A stretch of 59,096 nucleotides of DNA from Planctomycetota bacterium (GCA_036274635.1 DASUFI010000185.1:1-59096), one strand, 5' to 3'; shown: positions 47,353 to 56,565, counted from the first letter of the stretch. Notes: generated by a model from the sequence alone, not told the origin. Program-made: numbers and translations.

Positions 47353-47634
47353 GGCGGGTCTCCCTGGGCGGGCGTGAGGGTGCCCGGTCCATGGGGAGAC
47401 ATGCGCCGTCGGGGCGCGAGAGCGGCCATGACGGATCGGGCTCTCCTCGGCGTAGCGGCTGGACGCAGCGGTCTGAGTTCGGTCCTCGCGGCTGCTCGCT
47501 TCCGCTCCGCCGGCCCCGTGTCTTGACCGTTCCCGCGGCTCTGTTACCGTTTCGGCATAACGTCGGCCTTCAAGTGCGCCCGGGCAGGGCGTCAGGGCTG
47601 GGCAGGCCGGGCCGGCGGGGAAGGGCGCCGCCGT

Positions 47635-47994
47635 TTGGAACCGGACGACCTGAGTCACGAGGTCGAGCGACTGGCCGGTCGTGACGCATTGCCCTCCGAT
47701 GGCCGGCTCGATCCTGCCAATCCGCTGCACGTCGACCGCGCCGCCGCTGCCCTGCTCGCGCGCTTCTTCGGCGAGAACGATCCAGCGGCCTTCGAGGCCC
47801 TGGCGCGTCTGACCTGGCCGCTGCTCTCGGGCGCGGCGCGGGCGCTGACGCGCGAGGCGGGCCTCGCGGTGCCGGCCGCCAGCCTCGTCGCGGATCACAT
47901 GGCGCGGCTGTTCACGGACCTGGCGCCCGACGCCCGCACGCGGGCCGGCGGGGCGCACTTCCTCGCGGCGGCCGGGCGAGCCATGCAGGCCGAC
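47635..47994 (+). pseudogene. ECF-like sigma-70 family factor, 5' fragment (interrupted by IS insertion)
   Basis: ...LLARFFGENDPAAFEALARLTWPLLSGAARALTREAGL..AASLVADHMARLF is region-2-like. After codon GAC (47992-47994) the frame runs into the IS inverted repeat and stops at 48054. Confidence 0.7.
47987..47994. repeat. Target-site duplication, left copy (AGGCCGAC)
   Basis: It is identical to the 8-mer at 51372-51379 and directly abuts the left inverted repeat (IR-L). Confidence 0.85.
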
Positions 47995-48015
47995 CGGAAG
48001 TATGCCCCTAGTGAA
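47995..48015. repeat. Left terminal inverted repeat, IR-L (CGGAAGTATGCCCCTAGTGAA)
   Basis: It is the exact reverse complement of 51351-51371. Confidence 0.9.
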
Positions 48016-48069
48016 TGGAGCCGCCGGTCGGGTTGCGCGGGGTTGGCCACCTAGGCTTCACTGTTCGGG

Positions 48070-48711
48070 ATGGGGCGACCGGAGCTATCAGGGCGGCGGG
48101 TTGCGATTGGGCTCGTTGCGTTCGGCGGCGTTGTATGGGGGCTGTGGGTACTCGCCGGCGCGCTGCGTCAAGCCGAAGCAGACGTGAGCGCAGCAGCCGC
48201 GCTAGAAGCGCGAGAGCTATGGTTCCGAGTCATTGTGTTTGCCGCCTTGGCAATTGCCGGCGGAGCCCTGTGGCCGTCGCTTGAGTACACGGGGCGCAAA
48301 CTGCTTGGACTGCCCATCGAGGGCGACGAAGCAGAGCGCGCGGCTCGGTGGATGCTGCAAGTGCGGCTTACGATCCCCATCTTCGGGGCGACAACGCTCG
48401 CGCATATCGTCGAACGCTGGGAAAGCATCTTTGACGAAGACCTGACCACCGAGAAACCTGGGTGCAACCTCGCTCTCTGGAACCTCATCCTATTCGGGCC
48501 GCCGACCGCCCACGGGCCGACGACAACCAACAGGCTTACCGGCCTGCTACTGGACAGGATGACCAAGCGCGGTCTAGTGAGGGTCAGTAGCCACTCACAG
48601 CCGCGTGAGCCGCGCTTCGTTGCCGAGGCACTGATGGCAGACGCATGCGACTTCCTGCGCGCAATGAAAGGGTTCCGGCCCCTGTCTAAGCCTTCCGGCC
48701 AGAATCCTTAG
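48070..48711 (+). CDS. Cargo: membrane protein with 2-3 N-terminal TM helices and a winged-helix-like C-terminal region
   Basis: 213 aa. TM helices are VAIGLVAFGGVVWGLWVLAGAL and LWFRVIVFAALAIAGGALW. The C-terminus is TNRLTGLLLDRMTKRGLVRV. I recognise no family. Confidence 0.5.
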   Translation: MGRPELSGRRVAIGLVAFGGVVWGLWVLAGALRQAEADVSAAAALEARELWFRVIVFAALAIAGGALWPSLEYTGRKLLGLPIEGDEAERAARWMLQVRLTIPIFGATTLAHIVERWESIFDEDLTTEKPGCNLALWNLILFGPPTAHGPTTTNRLTGLLLDRMTKRGLVRVSSHSQPREPRFVAEALMADACDFLRAMKGFRPLSKPSGQNP

Positions 48712-48859
48712 GCCGGGAAGGGGAGCCACCCCTGCCCAGCATCTTGTCGATGAGGGCGAGCGGATTCCCTTTGATCTTGACGCGCACGGGCTTCCGCCCA
48801 GCTTTCTTTCGGCCACGCTTTGCCATGCCGCCTGACCTTACCAGCCGTGCCGCAGGGCG

Positions 48860-49816
48860 TCACGCGGCCTCGGATGGTGAATCGCTGTAGCGCAGCCGCT
48901 TGCCCTCGGACGCCTTGACGGCGCACGCCACGCGGTCCGCGTCCGTCAGCTTCCGGGTGTTGTACAGGTAAGCCGCCTCAGCCACGTAGCGGTGCAGGTG
49001 TTCGCGGCTGATCGCGTGGTGCGTGCCGTAGACCTTGCGCTTGAGCAGCGAGAAGAAGCCCTCAATCGTGTTGGTCGTCACGTCGCCGCGCGCGTACTCG
49101 TACAGGTGGTGATCGACGGTCTCGTGACCGCCCTTGAACATCCGCCCTGCATAGCGATACATGCGCGCCTCATCGGTCATGAGCCGGCTCTCGGGCGTGA
49201 CGTTCTCGAAGAGGAAGCGTTGCAGGTTGCTCGACGTGACCTCGGTGACGGCACGAACGCGCACGCCCCCGCCGCGCTGAACAACCGCCAGCACCGGCGC
49301 GCGCGTGTTGCCGGGGTGCTTGGATGTCTGCTGATTGTTGCGGCGGCGCGGCTTGCCGCCCACGTACGCTTCGTCGGCCTCCACCGTGCCGGAGAGCTTC
49401 GGCGCCTCGGCGCCATCGTCCATGGCGAAGCGGATGCGGTTCATCATGAAGAGGGCAGCCCGGTAGCCGATGCCCGTCTCGCGCTGAATCTGGAGCGCGC
49501 TGACGCCTTTCTTGCTCGCGCACGCGCGCCAGTAGGCGTGCGCCCAGATCCGCATCGGCAGGCGGCTCTCCTCGAACACGGTGCCCGTCCGCACGCTGTA
49601 CTGGCAGGGCTTGCCGGCCTTGGCGCAGTCCGGGCAGCGCCAGCGGAAGTGCGCCTCGCGCCTGCCATCCTTCCCGACGATCTTGTGGACGGCCATCGAT
49701 CCGCACCGGGGGCAGGCCGGAGCGTCGGGCCAGCGGCGGCTCTCAAAGAACTCCACGGCCTTGGCTTCGTCGGTGGTCGCGTCGCGCAGCACGGCGAGGG
49801 CTTCTTTCGTGTTCAT
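48860..49816 (-). CDS. IS1595 family transposase (ISXO2-like DDE domain with N-terminal zinc ribbon)
   Basis: ATG at 49816. The zinc ribbon is CPRCGS...WRCPDC...YSVRTGTVFEESRLPMRIW. DDE-domain hallmarks are VEADEAYVGGK, LMTDEARMY and NTIEGFFSLLKRKVYGTHH. Confidence 0.88.
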   Translation of the reverse strand: MNTKEALAVLRDATTDEAKAVEFFESRRWPDAPACPRCGSMAVHKIVGKDGRREAHFRWRCPDCAKAGKPCQYSVRTGTVFEESRLPMRIWAHAYWRACASKKGVSALQIQRETGIGYRAALFMMNRIRFAMDDGAEAPKLSGTVEADEAYVGGKPRRRNNQQTSKHPGNTRAPVLAVVQRGGGVRVRAVTEVTSSNLQRFLFENVTPESRLMTDEARMYRYAGRMFKGGHETVDHHLYEYARGDVTTNTIEGFFSLLKRKVYGTHHAISREHLHRYVAEAAYLYNTRKLTDADRVACAVKASEGKRLRYSDSPSEAA

Positions 49817-49892
49817 GCGGCCCACAATATTTCCGTATACTGGAAATGTCAAGGGCTTTTATCGACTACCGAAATGCGGTACCGTCCGGCCC

Positions 49893-50081
49893 ATGAAGAA
49901 GCCGAAGCGAGGGCGCCCGAGACTTCCCAAGGGGCAGGCGAGAACCGCCGTGCTCCCCGTGCGACTCCGGCCGGACGAACTGGAGGCCATGGAGCGCGCT
50001 GCTGGGCGGCAGGAGGCCGCCATAGGCGTCTGGGCCCGCGATACCCTGCGGAGGGCTGCTGGGCTCACCAACGACGCCTGA
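49893..50081 (+). CDS. Cargo: small ribbon-helix-helix-like protein (62 aa)
   Basis: MKKPKRGRPRLPKGQARTAVLPVRLRPDELEAMERAAGRQEAAIGVWARDTLRRAAG. It is divergent from the transposase gene. Confidence 0.5.
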   Translation: MKKPKRGRPRLPKGQARTAVLPVRLRPDELEAMERAAGRQEAAIGVWARDTLRRAAGLTNDA

Positions 50082-50275
50082 GGCGCCCGGGAGGGCTCCG
50101 CCATCTACGCCCGCCACTCCCGGGAGCCAGAGGCTTGTTTCCGTGGTGGCGGTCTGGGCAAAATTTGGACGCACTTGCGCCTGATGAGGGCGTTCAACTG
50201 TTCGGTTCCCACTGATTGGTTGAGAAGTGCTCGCGACCCGCCGGATGCACCCGGCGGGTCGCACTCTTTCCTGGC

Positions 50276-50803
50276 CTATTCGAGAAGCTGGGCCATAAGC
50301 TCCTCCGCGCGCTTCTTGCCGGGATTGGTAAGGCTGTACTTCGTGCCGCGCTTGGCTCCGGCCTTCGTAATCAGCGTCCCCTCGTGCGTGCCCAGCACTC
50401 GATCCATGCGGTCGAGCGGGCAGCCAGATTTTCGGAGGCTTCGCGCCAGCGTGACCGCAAACACGAACGGCTCGCTTGTCAGGCGCAGGTGGCCGTAGAT
50501 CATGAGGAGGATCTGATCGGGCACGTCCTTCGGCTTTACGAGCATCGACACGATGCCTTCGCGATCCCGATGGAACACCCGCGCGAGCAGGTCGTCATCG
50601 GCGCTGCGCGGGCCGGACTCGCCATTGCTGGCGCTGGCGCCGCCTTGGGTCGCGCTGCCGATGGAGTCGTTTACGCTGGCGCCGCGACCGCCGCTCGCCC
50701 GCAACGCTTCCAGCCAAAGCTGGTAGTCCGCGCGGACCTCTTCCTTGTCGCCTTCGCCGTGGAACTCGGCTCCGCCGAGCTTCACGTTCAAAACATAGGT
50801 CAT
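50276..50803 (-). CDS. Cargo: hypothetical protein (175 aa) with a winged-helix-like C-terminus
   Basis: ATG at 50803: MTYVLNVKLGGAEFHGEGDKEEV.... It has a Gly/Ser linker. The C-terminus is ...LARSLRKSGCPLDRMDRVLGTHEGTLITKAGAKRGTKYSLTNPGKKRAEEL. Confidence 0.55.
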   Translation of the reverse strand: MTYVLNVKLGGAEFHGEGDKEEVRADYQLWLEALRASGGRGASVNDSIGSATQGGASASNGESGPRSADDDLLARVFHRDREGIVSMLVKPKDVPDQILLMIYGHLRLTSEPFVFAVTLARSLRKSGCPLDRMDRVLGTHEGTLITKAGAKRGTKYSLTNPGKKRAEELMAQLLE

Positions 50804-51113
50804 GTGTTCGGTTCCCAACGCCCCACTGCACGGGGCAGGCCCCTAATTACCAGCTTGCCGCAAGCGACTTCAAGTATCCGTCATTGACGGCATGCGGCCT
50901 TTTTTAAGGCGCGAGGAATACCGCCGGCGAGGCTCCGTTGGATACCGGCGAACGCTGCGGGGAAGGCAATTTGCAGATTTCGTAACCAGTTGTCACCTCA
51001 CACGTTAGATCCGTTTCTTGCGGATCGTCGCAGCTTGCCATCTTCGCCGGTATCCGATAGAGGGCCGCCGGCGCTACTCTTCGCGCACAACTTCCCGGTC
51101 TTCAATGGCCGGC

Positions 51114-51143
51114 GGGGCCGTCTCTGACGGCCCCACTTTTTTT
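51114..51143 (+). terminator. Rho-independent terminator (orphan)
   Basis: GGGGCCGTC-TCT-GACGGCCCC forms a 9-bp stem, followed by AC and TTTTTTT. No plus-strand CDS ends upstream of it. Confidence 0.65.
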
Positions 51144-51150
51144 GGGGCGC

Positions 51151-51315
51151 ATGGGAACAGCGAGCGCGAGGCAGCCGCGGCCACAGACCATCGTGTACGT
51201 CGATGGGCTGAACCTCTACTACGGTGCCCTCAAGGGGACGCCGCACAAGTGGCTGGACTTGGTGAGGTTTGCTGGCCGGCTGCGCATCAACGACGACATC
51301 GTCCGCGTGCGCTAG
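51151..51315 (+). pseudogene. N-terminal remnant of an NYN-domain protein (54 codons)
   Basis: ...TIVYVDGLNLYYGALKGTPHKWLDLVRFAGRL... matches the N-terminus of NYN-domain proteins (VY.DGFNLYYGALKGT.YKWLDL). It stops after 54 codons, 35 nt before the right inverted repeat (IR-R). Confidence 0.55.
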
Positions 51316-51350
51316 GCCGCGCGCAGCTTGAACGCCGACTCGCCGGTCTG

Positions 51351-51371
51351 TTCACTAGGGGCATACTTCCG
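51351..51371. repeat. Right terminal inverted repeat, IR-R (TTCACTAGGGGCATACTTCCG)
   Basis: It is the exact reverse complement of IR-L. Confidence 0.9.
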
Positions 51372-51379
51372 AGGCCGAC
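51372..51379. repeat. Target-site duplication, right copy (AGGCCGAC)
   Basis: It is identical to 47987-47994. Confidence 0.85.
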
Positions 51380-51874
51380 GCATCTGAGAAGCTGCGCGCC
51401 TTCGCCGAGTCGCCCGGCGCCGTGCTCGCGGCGCTGGACGGGCCGGCGGATCCGGTGGACGTGGACGCCCTCGGCCGTCTCGCCACCGCTTCGCCCGCCG
51501 CGCAGCTGGCCGACACCGCCGGCTTGGCGGCCCTCTCGGCCGAGTCCGGCGGCCCGCGCCTCACCGGCGCCCGCGGCTCACGCGCGTCACGACATGCCCA
51601 GGCCCTCTTCTCCACCGCTTTCCATCGCCTCGACCCGCTACAACGGCGGGCGCTGCTCGCCCGAGACGTGGACGGCCTGTCGCTCCCGGAGGTGGCCGAG
51701 GCGGTCAAGGTAGGCAACAATGCCATGGCGTCGCTCCTCGTGGCGGCGCGCACGCGGCTGGCGGACGAGCTGGCCGCGCTGCTGCGCACGTACGGAGGGC
51801 GGCCACCCGGCTCCCAAGGCCCCGGAGGCTCCGGCGGCCGCGGCGGCCCGGGCAAGGGCAGGAGGAGGCGCTGA
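51380..51874 (+). pseudogene. ECF-like sigma-70 family factor, 3' fragment (region 4)
   Basis: LDPLQRRALLARDVDGLSLPEVAEAVKVGNNAMASLLVAARTRL is a region-4 helix-turn-helix. It is in frame with 47635..47994 once the element and one duplication copy are removed. It ends in an RGG-like tail, GGRPPGSQGPGGSGGRGGPGKGRRRR. Confidence 0.7.
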
Positions 51875-53013
51875 TGAGTCCCGCCAAGCGCAAGTCGGCC
51901 AAGTCCGGGCGCAGCGCCACCGTCGCCGCGCGCGGCGGCAAGGCGCGCGGCAAGGCCCGAGGCTCGGCTCTCACGAAGGCGGTGAAGGTGAAGGGAAAGA
52001 CACCGGTGAAGGCCGGGGATCACCGGGTGAAGGCGCGGAATGGGGCGCGCACCGGCGCCAGGAATGGCGCGGGGGTTGCTTGCGATTTGCCGCGGGAGGA
52101 GCTCGAGCTGCTGCTGGATCGCGATGGCGGGCGGGCGGACGTGTTGACGCACGTGCCGGCTTGCCATCCGTGCACGACGTCGCTGACGGTGATCGCAGCG
52201 CAGCGGGATGCGATCCGGCATTTGACGGCGGAGCCCGGCGGGACGGCGGTGGAGTATCTGCTGGAGCGTGGCGCGAAGGCGGGGGAGCGGAAGCTCGCGG
52301 ATCTGGTGTACGAGCTGGCGAAGGCGTGTGTAGAGGTCGCCCATGACCTTGAGCGCAGACTTCGGATGGCGGATCACCCGCGTACCCGTGGAGTCGTGTT
52401 TAGTGAAGTTCGGCAGGCTGCAGCGAGGAACACTCGCAGCAATGCGCAAGCACTCGCGTCACGCCTTCCAAGTGAAAGCGCTCCGGGCGAGCGCGCCGTA
52501 GCTGCGTCGGTGAGTTGCTTGGCCATCCTTCGTGAGCTTGAGGGCGAATCTGAACGATTCGGCTTGACGGAGGCAGTTCTCCTTATCGCTTCAGACCGCG
52601 CTGGCGAAGCTGAAAAGAGGCTGCACCGTCTTGTCAGCCGTCCCCTGACGCCGGTGAATCGGAAGTTCGCGCTCTGGAACCTGACTTGGGCGTTGCTGGA
52701 GCAAGGGAAGTACACGGAGGTCGTGTCTGTTGGCAGCGATGCGCTTCGCGAAGTGCCCGGCGACTGGAGTATCAACTTCAACTTGGCTTCGGCATGTGCG
52801 TGGCTGCGCGATCTGAGTGGCTTCGAGCGCCACGCCGCAGCCTTGAGGAAGGCAAAGGCACCTTCGGAGCGAGATCGTTCCTTTAGGGATCGATTGCTCA
52901 GATTTGAGGTGCCCAATTTCGCCGAAGTACTTGGCGTCGGGCCGGAAATCGTCGCGCAGAGCTTTGGACTGGCTAGTCGCGCCGATGAGGTGAGGTCGGA
53001 TGAAGGTGGCTGA
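51874..53013 (+). CDS. Putative anti-sigma factor (HxxxCxxC, ZAS-type) with a basic N-terminal tail and helical-repeat C-terminus; no TM segment
   Basis: ATG overlaps the sigma stop (TGATG) and follows GGAGGAGG. The zinc-finger motif (zf-HC2-like) is C...LELLLDRDGGRADVLTHVPACHPC, with H-x3-C-x2-C at 52150-52173. The first 68 aa are Lys/Arg/Ala/Gly-rich. Confidence 0.6.
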   Translation: MSPAKRKSAKSGRSATVAARGGKARGKARGSALTKAVKVKGKTPVKAGDHRVKARNGARTGARNGAGVACDLPREELELLLDRDGGRADVLTHVPACHPCTTSLTVIAAQRDAIRHLTAEPGGTAVEYLLERGAKAGERKLADLVYELAKACVEVAHDLERRLRMADHPRTRGVVFSEVRQAAARNTRSNAQALASRLPSESAPGERAVAASVSCLAILRELEGESERFGLTEAVLLIASDRAGEAEKRLHRLVSRPLTPVNRKFALWNLTWALLEQGKYTEVVSVGSDALREVPGDWSINFNLASACAWLRDLSGFERHAAALRKAKAPSERDRSFRDRLLRFEVPNFAEVLGVGPEIVAQSFGLASRADEVRSDEGG

Positions 53014-53434
53014 TTCCCCTCGATTTCGATCCATCATCCGCTCTGCCGCCGCTGCAGTGCTTCTGATCACGTTGGTCGCGGCCGTCATTGTTGATGGCCC
53101 CAATGACCCGAGACTCAAGTGTGGACCCGGTGGAACGGGTGGCATCCCCAAGAGCACGCCCCCGAAGCCAAGTCCGGCAGGAAGTACCAGTCCGATAAAG
53201 ACGCCGACGGTTGGCCAGGTGCTCGATGAACTGACTAATCAGCCAATTGTCGGCGCGCTGCTGGTAGTGACCGCACCTTCTGGCGAAATCGCCGGCGTCG
53301 CCTTGACCGACGGCGATGGCATCTTTGTGGTGTACCTACTCGACGTGCCCGGCCTTGAGCTCGCGATTCCGAGCGAAGGGTTTGCAGGGCTGTCCATCGA
53401 GGCTGGAGACGTTCTAACGATTTTCGTGCCGTAG
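53000..53434 (+). CDS. Membrane-anchored protein with one G-P-G-G-T-G-G-I-P-K motif and a C-terminal CarboxypepD_reg-like domain (short paralog)
   Basis: The anchor is AAAAVLLITLVAAVIV. The C-terminus GQVLDELTNQPIVGALLVVTAPSGEIAGVALTDGDGIFVVYLLDVPGLELAIPSEGFAGLSIEAGDVLTIFVP aligns with the C-terminus of the next gene. Confidence 0.6.
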   Translation: MKVADSPRFRSIIRSAAAAVLLITLVAAVIVDGPNDPRLKCGPGGTGGIPKSTPPKPSPAGSTSPIKTPTVGQVLDELTNQPIVGALLVVTAPSGEIAGVALTDGDGIFVVYLLDVPGLELAIPSEGFAGLSIEAGDVLTIFVP

Positions 53435-53573
53435 CAGGGCATGGTGGTGATTCTCGCCCGCCCTCGGTGTCTTGGATGTACGTCGCCGTAGCCGCTTGCC
53501 GGCCGTAGGCGACCCGTCCTTGTGTTATGGCGACGATGACGTCTGACCCCGCGTGCATTCGGAGGGTGACCCA

Positions 53574-54635
53574 ATGAACTCGATCCACTTCGAGCGTTGT
53601 CTGCTGTGTGCCTTGCTCGCGGTAAGGATTTGCTCGGCCCAAGCGACCATGTTCCATGTGCAGCTTCCGGTCTGCGAGCTCGCCACGCCGCGACCGTGCA
53701 TGGCGCAAGCTACTGCGCTCATCACAGGCCAGAAAGCTCGGCCCACAGTCAGCGACCCTGGAAGCGTCGGAGGCCTCCCCTGCAATGCGAAGTTTGGTCT
53801 TGGACCGGACAGCACGGGAAGCCTTGCGAAGTCGCTGATGAACCTGCCTGAGAGTTCACCCGGGTCATCTCAGCGCTCGAACAGCTGCAGCGGCGCATCA
53901 CCGTTGCCCGACGCCGGACCCGGCGGCGGAGGCGAAGTGTCTCGTGAGGAAGTGAAGTCGACGAGCGATCCCGGAAGGGCCGGCAGCCTCCTTACGTCGG
54001 TCCCCGCGGCATCGAGTCCCGTCGTTGCCGGTGGTCCTGATGGCGTGGGAAGTCTTCCAAAGCCGCTGGAAAAGTTGCCTCCGATCCTGCCCGAATCTTC
54101 GCAGCGCCGGAGCAGCAGTGTGTTCACGCCGTCCACCGCCCACCCCGGGGGCGGAGGCGCGGCGCCTCACCTGCAAGCTACTGCGGCCTCGTGTCCCGAC
54201 GGTGCCGGCGGCATCCCTAGGTCTGTCACTGGTCGGCCGAGCTTGGTCGGTGTCGGTGGCCCTGACGGCGCCGGAAGCCTTCCAATCGTCTCGCCCCCTC
54301 CCGGCGCGCCACACCTCACCATCGGTGGAAACGGCACCGGCGGCATTCGTCTGACCTGCACACCCAGCTCCCTGCCGAGTACCCTTCCTTCGCCGGCAGG
54401 CCAGTGCGTCAGCGGCCTCGTATTCGACGCTTCGACCCGCCGCCCCATCGCCGGCGCGCCGGTCGTCGTGATCGATGTCCGTGCTGGCATCGCCAGCGTG
54501 ACCGTCACCGATGAACTCGGCCAGTTCATCGCCTACATCGACAACGCGGCCGGCCTCGACCTCGCGATCCCAACAGAAGGCATCGCAGGCATCTCGGTGG
54601 CGCCGGGCGACATCCTCGAGATCGCCGTGCCCTAG
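53574..54635 (+). CDS. Secreted protein with reiterated G-P-D-G-x-G-S-L-P-K motifs and a C-terminal CarboxypepD_reg-like domain (long paralog)
   Basis: ATG at 53574 lies 7 nt after GGAGGG. The signal peptide is MNSIHFERCLLCALLAVRICSAQA. Motifs GPDSTGSLAKS, GGPDGVGSLPKP, CPDGAGGIPRS, GGPDGAGSLPIV and GGNGTGGIRLT are present. Confidence 0.65.
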   Translation: MNSIHFERCLLCALLAVRICSAQATMFHVQLPVCELATPRPCMAQATALITGQKARPTVSDPGSVGGLPCNAKFGLGPDSTGSLAKSLMNLPESSPGSSQRSNSCSGASPLPDAGPGGGGEVSREEVKSTSDPGRAGSLLTSVPAASSPVVAGGPDGVGSLPKPLEKLPPILPESSQRRSSSVFTPSTAHPGGGGAAPHLQATAASCPDGAGGIPRSVTGRPSLVGVGGPDGAGSLPIVSPPPGAPHLTIGGNGTGGIRLTCTPSSLPSTLPSPAGQCVSGLVFDASTRRPIAGAPVVVIDVRAGIASVTVTDELGQFIAYIDNAAGLDLAIPTEGIAGISVAPGDILEIAVP

Positions 54636-54822: not shown

Positions 54823-56565
54823 ATGGGCGTCTCCACCTCCGACATCGCCTTCCAGATCCAGGACCTCGGCAAGCGCCACGGCGCCCGTATCCTGTTCGAG
54901 AACGTCTCGCTGTCCTTCCTCAAGGGCGCGCGCATCGGCGTCATCGGCCCCAACGGCATGGGCAAGAGCTCGCTGCTGCGCATCATGGCGGGCCAGGACA
55001 AGGAGTTCGAAGGCCAGATCCTGCCCGCGCCGGGGCTGACCGTCGGCTACGTCCCGCAGGAGCCGAAGCTCGACGAGAACCTGACCGTGGCGGAGAACGT
55101 CGAGAAAGCCGTCGAGCCGATCCGCGCGCTGATTCGCGAATACGAGGAGGTGAGCGCGAAGCTCGGCGAAGACCTGCCCGAAGCCGAGATGAACCGCCTG
55201 ATGGAGCGCATGACCCGCCTGCAGGAAGAGGTGGAAGCGCGCGACGGCTGGGAGCTGGACCGCCACCTCGAGCAGGCGATGCAGGCGCTCGGCCTGCCGC
55301 CGGCCGACAGCCCGGTGAAGCACCTCAGCGGCGGGGAGCGCAGGCGCGTGGCGCTGTGCCGCGCGCTCATGGAGCACCCGGACCTGCTGCTGCTGGACGA
55401 GCCGACGAACCACCTCGACGCCGACACGGTCACGTGGCTCGAGAAGCACCTGCAGGACTACAGCGGCACGATCATCCTCGTCACGCACGACCGCTACTTC
55501 CTCGACAACGTCGTGGGGTGGATGCTCGAGATCGACCGCGGGCAGTTCCGGCCCTACAAGGGCAACTACTCGGACTACCTGGAGGCGCGCCAGGAGTTCT
55601 ACCGGCAGCGGCAGAAGGGCGACGACGAGCGGGGCAAGCTCATCGCCCGCGAGCTGGAGTGGATCCGCACCAATCCCAGGGGCCGCACCACCAAGAGCAA
55701 GGCGCGTATCGCGCGCTACGACGAGTTGGTGCAGCAGGCGCGGCAGGCCATCGTGGACGAGCTGCACCTGCACATCCCGTTCACGCGGCGGCTGGGCGAC
55801 CAGGTGCTCATCGTCGATCACGTGAGCAAGGGCTTCGGCGGGCGCACGCTGTTCGAGGACCTCACCTTCGAGCTGCCGCCGGGTGCCATTCTGGGCGTGG
55901 TGGGGCCCAACGGCGCCGGCAAGACCACGCTGGTGAAGATGATCGTGGGCCAGGAGAAGCCCGATGGGGGCAAGGTGAAGGTGGGGCCGACGGTGGACCT
56001 CTGCTACCTGGACCAGTCTCGCGGCTCGTTGATGGACAACCGCACGGTGTACGACGAGATCACCGGCGGCAGCGACATGCTGCGCGTGGGCGACATCGAG
56101 ATGAACGGCCGCGCCTACGTGAGCCGCTTCAACTTCCGCGGCGAGCAGCAGAGCAAGCAGATGGGCACGCTGAGCGGCGGCGAGCGCAACCGCGTGCTCA
56201 TGGCCAAGATGCTGGCGCGCGGCGGCAACTGCATCCTGCTCGACGAGCCCACCAACGACCTCGACCTGCCCACGCTGCGCGAGCTGGAGGAGGCGCTGCT
56301 GGAGTTCCCCGGCGTGGTCATCTGCGTCACCCACGACCGCTTCTTCATGGACCGCATCGCCACGCACATCCTCGCGTTCACCGGCGAGGACAAGGCGCTG
56401 GGCGAGGGCGTCGCGATCGAGGGCAGCGGCGACGCGACCGGGCGGGTGTTCTTCCACCCCGGCAACTACCAGAGCTGGCGCGAGTACTACGGCATGCTGC
56501 GCGAGAAGGCGGGCCTGCCGCCGATCGAGGCGGTGGGGGCGCACCGGAAGTTCAGGGGGAGCTGA
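54823..56565 (+). CDS. ettA: ABC-F ATPase, energy-dependent translational throttle protein EttA-like
   Basis: ATG at 54823. It has two ABC cassettes (GVIGPNGMGKSS / LSGGERRRVAL...LLLLDEPTNHLD and GVVGPNGAGKTT / LSGGERNRVLM...ILLDEPTNDLD) and the linker typical of EttA. Confidence 0.88.
   Translation: MGVSTSDIAFQIQDLGKRHGARILFENVSLSFLKGARIGVIGPNGMGKSSLLRIMAGQDKEFEGQILPAPGLTVGYVPQEPKLDENLTVAENVEKAVEPIRALIREYEEVSAKLGEDLPEAEMNRLMERMTRLQEEVEARDGWELDRHLEQAMQALGLPPADSPVKHLSGGERRRVALCRALMEHPDLLLLDEPTNHLDADTVTWLEKHLQDYSGTIILVTHDRYFLDNVVGWMLEIDRGQFRPYKGNYSDYLEARQEFYRQRQKGDDERGKLIARELEWIRTNPRGRTTKSKARIARYDELVQQARQAIVDELHLHIPFTRRLGDQVLIVDHVSKGFGGRTLFEDLTFELPPGAILGVVGPNGAGKTTLVKMIVGQEKPDGGKVKVGPTVDLCYLDQSRGSLMDNRTVYDEITGGSDMLRVGDIEMNGRAYVSRFNFRGEQQSKQMGTLSGGERNRVLMAKMLARGGNCILLDEPTNDLDLPTLRELEEALLEFPGVVICVTHDRFFMDRIATHILAFTGEDKALGEGVAIEGSGDATGRVFFHPGNYQSWREYYGMLREKAGLPPIEAVGAHRKFRGS

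Follow-up and report, generated by a model that had tools for sequence, protein, structure and literature searches.

A Planctomycetota gene module joining a divergent sigma factor with a soluble zinc-motif/TPR partner and secreted Gly/Pro-motif proteins, with the sigma gene split by an insertion sequence

We analysed a stretch of 59,096 nucleotides from a Planctomycetota bacterium (GCA_036274635.1, DASUFI010000185.1:1-59096; the window, in its whole length, with positions counted from its first letter) in which a sigma gene is followed on the same strand by a gene for a soluble partner protein with a zinc motif and a tetratricopeptide repeat (TPR) domain, and then by genes for a short and a long secreted paralog that share a Gly/Pro-rich motif. 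Together these represent a real and uncharacterised gene module, confined to Planctomycetota, in which a soluble zinc-motif/TPR partner and one or two secreted motif proteins accompany a divergent sigma factor. The window region is most likely the downstream part of a Planctomycetota-specific four-gene operon encoding the sigma factor, the anti-sigma-like protein, the short secreted protein and the longer secreted paralog(s), with the fourth position (one or two longer paralogs) occupied in many loci. In this genome the sigma gene is interrupted at codon 120 by an insertion sequence (IS) at 47995–51371. The module is laid out as follows.

47635–47994, plus strand: 5′ half of the sigma gene, with a TTG start, residues 1–120 and a divergent sigma-2-like region; located by tblastn with the ortholog from locus L001.
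51372–51874, plus strand: 3′ half of the sigma gene, comprising the right target duplication (51372–51379), then the linker, sigma-4 and a Gly/Arg tail.
51874–53013, plus strand: anti-sigma-like partner, 379 aa, soluble; described from homolog alignment, an AlphaFold model, a profile against the PDB and Foldseek.
Within the partner: basic disordered tail, 51874–52077; Cys70, 52081–52083; H-x3-C-x2-C, 52150–52173; invariant LADLVYELAKAC helix, 52294–52329; TPR domain, about 52486–52968.
52340–53150, plus strand: hypervariable segment with low G+C content at third codon positions (GC3), covering the partner from about residue 155 to its end and the signal-peptide region of the short gene.
53000–53434, plus strand: short secreted paralog, 144 aa, with a signal peptide, one motif copy and a Pro-rich linker; orthologs 50–73% identical.
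Within the short paralog: motif CGPGGTGGIPKS, 53120–53155; beta-sandwich domain, 53204–53431.
53574–54635, plus strand: long secreted paralog, 353 aa, with a signal peptide, a Gly/Pro/Ser-rich stalk bearing seven motif copies and a beta-sandwich from about 54408.
Motif copies of the long paralog: 53751–53786, 53799–53834, 53964–53999 (degenerate), 54030–54065, 54189–54224, 54255–54290 and 54321–54356.

The order sigma, anti-sigma-like, motif protein(s) is kept without exception in 14 of 14 independent loci from Planctomycetota or metagenomes (the window, L001, L002, L003 (=L012), L004 (=L005), L007, L008, L009, L010, L011, L014 (=L013, L016), L017 (=L018), L019 and L020, counting every homolog with sufficient flanking sequence), a co-occurrence that bears out the sigma-linked module proposed in a first-pass annotation of this DNA. 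A motif-protein gene lies directly 3′ of the anti-sigma-like gene in all 14, mostly overlapping it, and the sigma gene lies directly 5′ in every locus whose contig extends far enough; overlaps within the triad are of 4 to 14 nt. Three of the loci were reached through distant motif proteins, and there the upstream gene matches the anti-sigma profile at 2e-70 to 1.5e-85 (hmmsearch). In the window, L004, L009, L014, L015, L017 (two) and L019, the short paralog is succeeded by longer ones with several motif copies. Every organism-named record of the module is a Planctomycetota metagenome-assembled genome (MAG), and the neighbouring genes (FG-GAP, DUF7133, 3keto-disac_hyd) are consistent with that phylum. 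In one such MAG (L011, 3576–8305), sigma is fused in frame to the LADLVYELAKAC-plus-TPR part of the partner, with the zinc motif absent, which provides independent evidence that the sigma and partner proteins work together. Behind this fusion lie a motif protein with a different C terminus and then a second sigma and zinc-motif/TPR pair.

The partner is encoded immediately after the sigma frame, the sigma TGA (51872–51874) overlapping the partner ATG (51874–51876) as TGATG. Its residues 93–100 (52150–52173) read HVPACHPC and, with Cys70 lying 22 residues upstream, give a C-x22-H-x3-C-x2-C signature in which His93, Cys97 and Cys100 are invariant in 11 homologs and Cys70 is kept in 10 of the 11; the signature is also kept in four further loci (L010, L017, L019 and L020). 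The protein has no transmembrane segment, its maximum Kyte–Doolittle 19-residue mean being 1.14. The overlap, the H-x3-C-x2-C motif and the solubility had all been read correctly at first pass, as had the presence of a 68-residue tail: residues 1–68 contain 20 Lys and Arg to one Asp and Glu and are disordered, with an AlphaFold predicted local distance difference test (pLDDT) score below 50. The tail is thus basic as described, and 'histone-like' holds as a resemblance of composition only. Homologs of the partner are few, ten among 5.8 billion clusters, and all have in common an MSPAKRK start, a basic tail of variable length, H-x3-C-x2-C, the LADLVYELAKAC helix and a helical C terminus.

What that annotation overlooked is a confident TPR domain in the C-terminal 160 residues, two-fifths of the protein. 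AlphaFold models residues 205–365 as a helical repeat with pLDDT 86–97, the family profile matches a consensus TPR in the PDB at 2.4e-12, and the Foldseek matches of the partner are TPR proteins only (PilF, PEX5, SycD and PcrH). The Pfam TPR_19 score of the window protein, 22.3 bits, falls just under the cut-off of 25.

What had been annotated as the sigma gene adjoining the module is only the 3′ fragment of a split gene. By tblastn, window 47635–47994 matches residues 22–141 of the 304-aa L001 ortholog at 74% identity and window 51371–51796 matches residues 139–280 at 88%; the upstream open reading frame (ORF; 47635–48054) continues from the sigma 5′ half into the IS, and in silico removal of the element with one duplication copy (47635–47994 joined to 51380–51874) gives an open frame of 284 aa. 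The gene is intact in L001, L004, L008, L010, L017 and L020. In the ORF adjoining the module, Pfam detects sigma region 4 only (Sigma70_r4_2, 8.3e-8, 32.2 bits against a cut-off of 25.7), a match that the restored protein retains at 31.0 bits, and the sigma family profile matches the sigma-4 domains of SigF, SigE, SigW and SigH in the PDB. The N-terminal domain is so highly divergent that only the NCBIfam ECF models align across it, all below their cut-offs: TIGR02937 covers both sigma domains (residues 88–271; 26.7 bits, cut-off 42.9) and TIGR02999 aligns to residues 68–147. The two domains are joined by a long linker of about 90 residues, and the frame ends in ...GGRGGPGKGRRRR, a Gly/Arg tail that recurs in the closest relatives and, in kind, in orthologs, much as the initial description of an RGG-like tail had it. 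This tail and the Lys/Arg/Ala-rich N-terminal tail of the partner are coded back to back (window 51820–52077) and vary together in length: both are long in the window, L001, L002, L004 and L007 (L008 being near-identical to L001 here), and both are short or absent in L003, L010, L017 and L020.

Upstream of the sigma gene, the regions compared (window 47520–47640, L001:5040–5160, L008:975–1095 and L004:1040–1165) conserve CTTGACCG, a spacer of 16–17 nt, a TAnnnT-like hexamer, an invariant ACGTCGGC and a G-rich leader. A generic promoter and terminator scan gave background-level results. The element that separates this region from the module has the following parts.

47995–51371, no strand assigned: IS1595-family element, 3,377 bp, recognised by its terminal inverted repeats, target duplication and transposase.
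47987–47994, no strand assigned: left 8-bp target-site duplication, AGGCCGAC, identical to the right copy at 51372–51379.
48860–49852, minus strand: transposase (Pfam DDE_Tnp_IS1595, 8.5e-34; Zn_ribbon_IS1595, 3.5e-9).
48070–48711, plus strand, and 50276–50818, minus strand: passenger ORFs without a Pfam or PADLOC match.
50233–50262 and 51114–51134: hairpins followed by T runs.

The terminal inverted repeats (47995–48015 and 51351–51371) are perfect over 21 bp (CGGAAGTATGCCCCTAGTGAA), and no other copy occurs in the window. The element shares with the IS1595 family its DDE_Tnp_IS1595 and zinc-ribbon transposase, inverted repeats and 8-bp duplication, and differs in being long for an insertion sequence, at 3.4 kb, and in its passenger ORFs, which have no family match. 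Contigs from the soil-metagenome run to which the window belongs (X1) span both junctions, and the uninterrupted form was not seen among the Logan contigs of that run, which drop rare variants. Because the sigma gene is split, the module in this genome is probably cut off from its sigma factor, and is probably silent or no longer under sigma control. The terminator-like hairpin and T run at 51114–51134 sit between the native sigma promoter region and the module. Contig word depth in X1 about doubles at window 48970–49126 (18 against about 10), and further copies of the transposase probably exist in the soil community. A likeness to an NYN-domain N terminus at 51170–51315 was dropped when Pfam gave no confirmation.

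Both motif proteins begin with hydrophobic segments (Kyte–Doolittle means of 2.46 for the short and 1.78 for the long protein) and end in TIFVP and EIAVP, respectively, in agreement with their first description as exported paralogs. The long gene starts at ATG 53574 rather than GTG 53553, as indicated by homology and a GGAGGG ribosome-binding site; the start is fixed by the same signal peptide in P0026, P0024 and P0021, which are orthologs of the window protein with the same layout and the same terminal GGNGTGGIR variant of the motif. Synteny of the long paralog extends to L013 and L014. When the long paralog was used in a word-based search, no homolog came up, and its orthologs surfaced only through a search with a hidden Markov model (HMM) of the short family. 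A stretch of 180 nt (60 aa) at 54068–54247, part of a Ser/Pro-rich spacer together with the motif copy at 54189–54224, is absent from the L014 ortholog, so that close relatives differ in their number of motif copies.

The motif is a nonapeptide, [GD]-P-[DG]-G-x-G-[GS]-[LIV]-P. It had been counted once in the short protein, which holds, and about five times in the long one, which has six clear copies and a degenerate seventh, the additions lying at 53751 and 53964. The short-family HMM gave 119 matches among 1.84 billion representative proteins, about 55 of them small (45–160 aa) or mid-sized (190–276 aa). Thirty-eight matches were retrieved, and the motif is present in every one of the 35 small or mid-sized sequences among these, nearly all of which end in three hydrophobic residues followed by V-P. 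Short forms carry a single copy soon after the signal peptide; long forms carry 3–7. A scan of metagenome contigs with the short family returned only one locus, already known. The DNA coding for the motif copies is only 72–88% alike and Tandem Repeats Finder detects no tandem array at the motif region, so the repetition is kept at the protein level, and recent tandem duplication was rejected as its source. The motif lies outside all Pfam, NCBIfam and PADLOC models, and had likewise resisted assignment to a known repeat family at first pass.

The other matches among the 119 are large proteins with many CarboxypepD_reg repeats, which suggests that the first half of the C-terminal domain has that fold. 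Direct matches to CarboxypepD_reg (PF13620) stay under the 32.3-bit cut-off (short, E = 1.7e-5, 25.5 bits; long, E = 4.8e-5, 24.1 bits), and support for the domain as initially described is transitive: the A2 family profile matches P0031 at 1.5e-17, and P0031 itself scores 272.9 bits on PF13620. In the secreted proteins the first half of the C-terminal domain can be aligned with CarboxypepD_reg, and the family profile matches multi-repeat proteins at about E = 1e-17; they differ in their sub-cut-off direct scores and in the family-specific last 30 residues (PGLELAIPSEG..AG..L.I.VP) and N-terminal motif stalk. AlphaFold models the motif region of the short protein as disordered and residues 70–111 as beta strands, with an overall pLDDT of 53. 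Two chimeras were met in the wider family, P0018 (85 aa), which couples a prepilin-type N terminus (PF07963) to the final 39 residues of the motif family, and L013:1–759, an anti-sigma homolog with an unrelated N terminus; either genuine recombination at the conserved edges or faulty assembly could have produced them.

Base composition and identity change abruptly inside the partner gene. GC content is 0.59–0.65 over about 52.3–54.0 kb and back to 0.68–0.71 by 54.1 kb; the drop had been annotated over 52.35–54.64 kb, and its onset stands whereas its far end does not. GC3 falls from about 0.85 to 0.62 at 52351 and lies at 0.62–0.72 in the module against 0.97 in the adjoining ABC-F gene. The same dip occurs in every orthologous locus, where GC3 is 0.64–0.85 in the motif genes and the distal portion of the anti-sigma gene, against 0.95–0.98 in their neighbours. 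With the dip recurring, and setting in within the anti-sigma gene, uptake of the whole module by this genome alone, in line with the possible horizontal acquisition suggested at first pass, is not the preferred reading of it. Compared with L009 and L014, the window DNA is 90% identical up to about 52330–52360, then 38–53% to about 53150, and again 66–79% over what remains of the short gene, the intergenic stretch after it and the long gene, so that the 52340–53150 segment has conserved DNA on both sides. Between L001 and L008, identity is 94–100% across sigma and 440 nt into the anti-sigma gene, and 43–61% beyond. At the protein level, identity over the N-terminal, middle and end segments is 100%, 96% and 25% between P0009 and P0010, and 94%, 36% and 34% between the window and P0002. 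N-domain identity tracks the identity of the short protein's C-terminal domain (rho = 0.83) and does not track that of the TPR middle or end (rho = 0.08 and 0.22). These segment-wise breaks indicate that the sensor half has been exchanged between lineages, and swapping of the TPR segment by recombination would account for a low-GC, highly divergent stretch. The GC dip starts at a sharp recombination breakpoint inside the anti-sigma gene, where DNA identity drops from 90–100% to about 45%. Allelic replacement of a hypervariable segment, in a module that is otherwise shared by vertical descent, agrees with the data.

Directly after the module in the window lies an ABC-F (EttA-like) ATPase gene (54826–56565, GC3 0.97); the same neighbour is found in L002, which suggests shared ancestry of the chromosomal site. 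PADLOC models matched no module protein and no IS passenger ORF, and a link to a known defence system is therefore unsupported.

Soluble zinc-binding anti-sigma (ZAS) factors are paired with extracytoplasmic function (ECF) sigma factors, as in RsrA–SigR and ChrR–SigE. The partner resembles them in being cytoplasmic, in being encoded directly after the sigma gene with an overlap, and in combining H-x3-C-x2-C and a further Cys about 22 residues upstream with a helical N-terminal region; like ChrR it has an extra C-terminal domain, in this case a TPR and not a cupin. It departs from them in its polybasic N-terminal tail, in having no demonstrable homology to zf-HC2 or to solved anti-sigma domains, and in a cognate sigma factor whose sigma-2 domain is undetectable and whose linker is long (about 90 residues).

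On this basis we propose, with moderate confidence, that the module is a new system of an ECF-like sigma factor (about 284 aa) and a soluble anti-sigma factor with a polymorphic TPR input and linked secreted motif proteins. What is established is the order of the genes, the stop/start overlap, the invariant Cys/His residues of the partner and its TPR fold, and, for the secreted proteins, their signal peptides and conserved motif. The partner, translationally coupled to the sigma gene and cytoplasmic, would bind sigma through its N-terminal Cys/His helical region and keep it inactive, as zinc-binding anti-sigma domains do. Its C-terminal TPR would serve as the input domain for a cytoplasmic protein or peptide ligand, and either ligand binding or oxidation of the zinc site may free sigma. 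The secreted proteins would be co-expressed outputs, displaying one to seven motif copies on a disordered stalk before the CarboxypepD_reg-like beta-sandwich, the copies most likely serving in the cell envelope as multivalent sites for docking or processing. Recombination swaps the TPR segment between lineages, and in this genome the IS1595-family insertion has split the sigma gene.

Several observations weigh against this proposal. The window partner has no match to zf-HC2 (PF13490) at E up to 10, its N-domain profile matches no solved anti-sigma factor in the PDB, and the Cys/His N-domain is modelled as helical at low confidence (pLDDT about 55). A sigma-2 domain is picked up neither by Pfam Sigma70_r2, in any family member, nor by PDB profiles. 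The element conserved ahead of sigma looks like a housekeeping sigma-70 promoter and not an ECF autoregulated one, and the short–long intergenic regions have no convincing bipartite promoter element in common across loci. The TPR end and the N terminus of the short protein do not co-vary (rho = 0.03; 8 loci, 28 locus pairs). Relatives of the partner fare a little better with zf-HC2, weak matches occurring in 3 of 11 (E = 0.024 or weaker), and the isolated N-domain of P0008 gives the best result (E = 0.0011, 19.5 bits against a cut-off of 22.2). The putative zinc-finger assignment accordingly rests on signature and genomic context, not homology; the ZAS type first given to the protein holds for its solubility and signature and finds no detectable zf-HC2 homology in the window protein.

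The main rival casts the partner as a positive factor, a detached version of the C-terminal TPR extension of ECF42 sigma factors, such that sigma would be active only in complex with it. ECF42 sigma factors have an essential C-terminal TPR extension of about 200 residues that they need for activity (PMC8999054; PMC7826278). The module likewise ties a TPR domain of about this size to an ECF-type sigma factor, the two being fused in cis in one relative (L011), with H-x3-C-x2-C absent, and no significant homology of the partner to known anti-sigma domains was found. The window TPR, unlike that of ECF42, sits on a separate protein behind a zinc motif, and the Cys/His signature has the usual ZAS spacing and is invariant in all unfused members; the near-threshold zf-HC2 scores of some relatives also argue against a positive factor. 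ECF groups with a C-terminal extension typically lack a separate anti-sigma factor (PMC7826278), and the fused and unfused forms could be two regulatory states. The L011 fusion keeps this reading in play, and we regard it as unlikely but still a serious contender.

A decaying remnant, in which the genes after sigma are drifting and relaxed selection has lowered GC3, would agree with the IS-split sigma gene, with the terminator-like hairpin at 51114–51134 between the native promoter and the module, and with window GC3 values (0.62–0.72) somewhat under the 0.68–0.85 of orthologs. Yet none of the three downstream ORFs is broken, and each retains all residues that are invariant in its family. The insertion looks recent from its perfect inverted repeats and target duplication, and loci in which sigma is whole show the GC3 dip as well. 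We find decay an improbable account of the module in this genome.

RRNPP-type TPR receptors are encoded next to genes for secreted pro-peptides, as in Rap/Phr and PlcR/PapR. In a circuit of this kind the secreted paralogs would be pro-peptides from which the motif is excised, re-imported and bound by the TPR, releasing sigma. The parallel is visible in the gene for a cytoplasmic TPR sensor directly upstream of genes for small Sec-exported proteins, in the reiteration of the motif between variable spacers and in a sensor segment that is polymorphic between strains, as in pherotype loci. The output, however, would be a sigma factor and not a helix-turn-helix or phosphatase domain. The motif is conserved whereas the TPR is hypervariable and does not co-vary with the exported proteins, and, unlike pro-peptides, the latter keep a folded, conserved beta-sandwich of about 75 residues; this combination of conserved motif, variable receptor and folded domain makes the circuit less likely. 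No conserved peptidase or oligopeptide permease was found in the module neighbourhoods examined. We judge the circuit quite improbable.

That the motif is a chance product of Gly/Pro/Ser-rich low complexity or of recent tandem DNA duplication is hardly credible: the stalk region is 44% Gly, Pro and Ser, but 4 strict and 6 loose copies occur in the long protein where 0.004 and 0.06 are expected (20,000 shuffles), and the motif stands at matching positions in orthologs despite differing spacers. This excess and the conservation of the motif in about 35 sequenced relatives show that it is not ordinary low-complexity sequence, the case which at first pass had been named as counting against it.

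Within the proposed sigma/anti-sigma system, a further and rather doubtful extension is that the hypervariable TPR segment between its recombination breakpoints is a population-level polymorphic recognition cassette wired to the sigma factor. It would be a cytoplasmic sensor whose alleles follow some variable counterpart, for instance proteins of phages or competitors, or secreted partners specific to a strain, with the motif proteins as the envelope output. If true, the input to the sigma factor would be of a new type, and the secreted motif proteins would make up a new family.

Planctomycetota have many ECF sigma factors, the regulation of which is poorly understood. The module adds a sigma/anti-sigma architecture that lies outside existing models, its partner and motif proteins being recognised by no Pfam, NCBIfam or PADLOC model. 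The IS-split sigma gene illustrates that a 'sigma plus anti-sigma' annotation drawn from adjacency alone can mislead. A zinc-motif and TPR partner whose sensor half is swapped between near-identical backgrounds offers a testable case of sigma-input diversification, and the secreted proteins with their reiterated nine-residue motif are candidates for a new family of envelope proteins.

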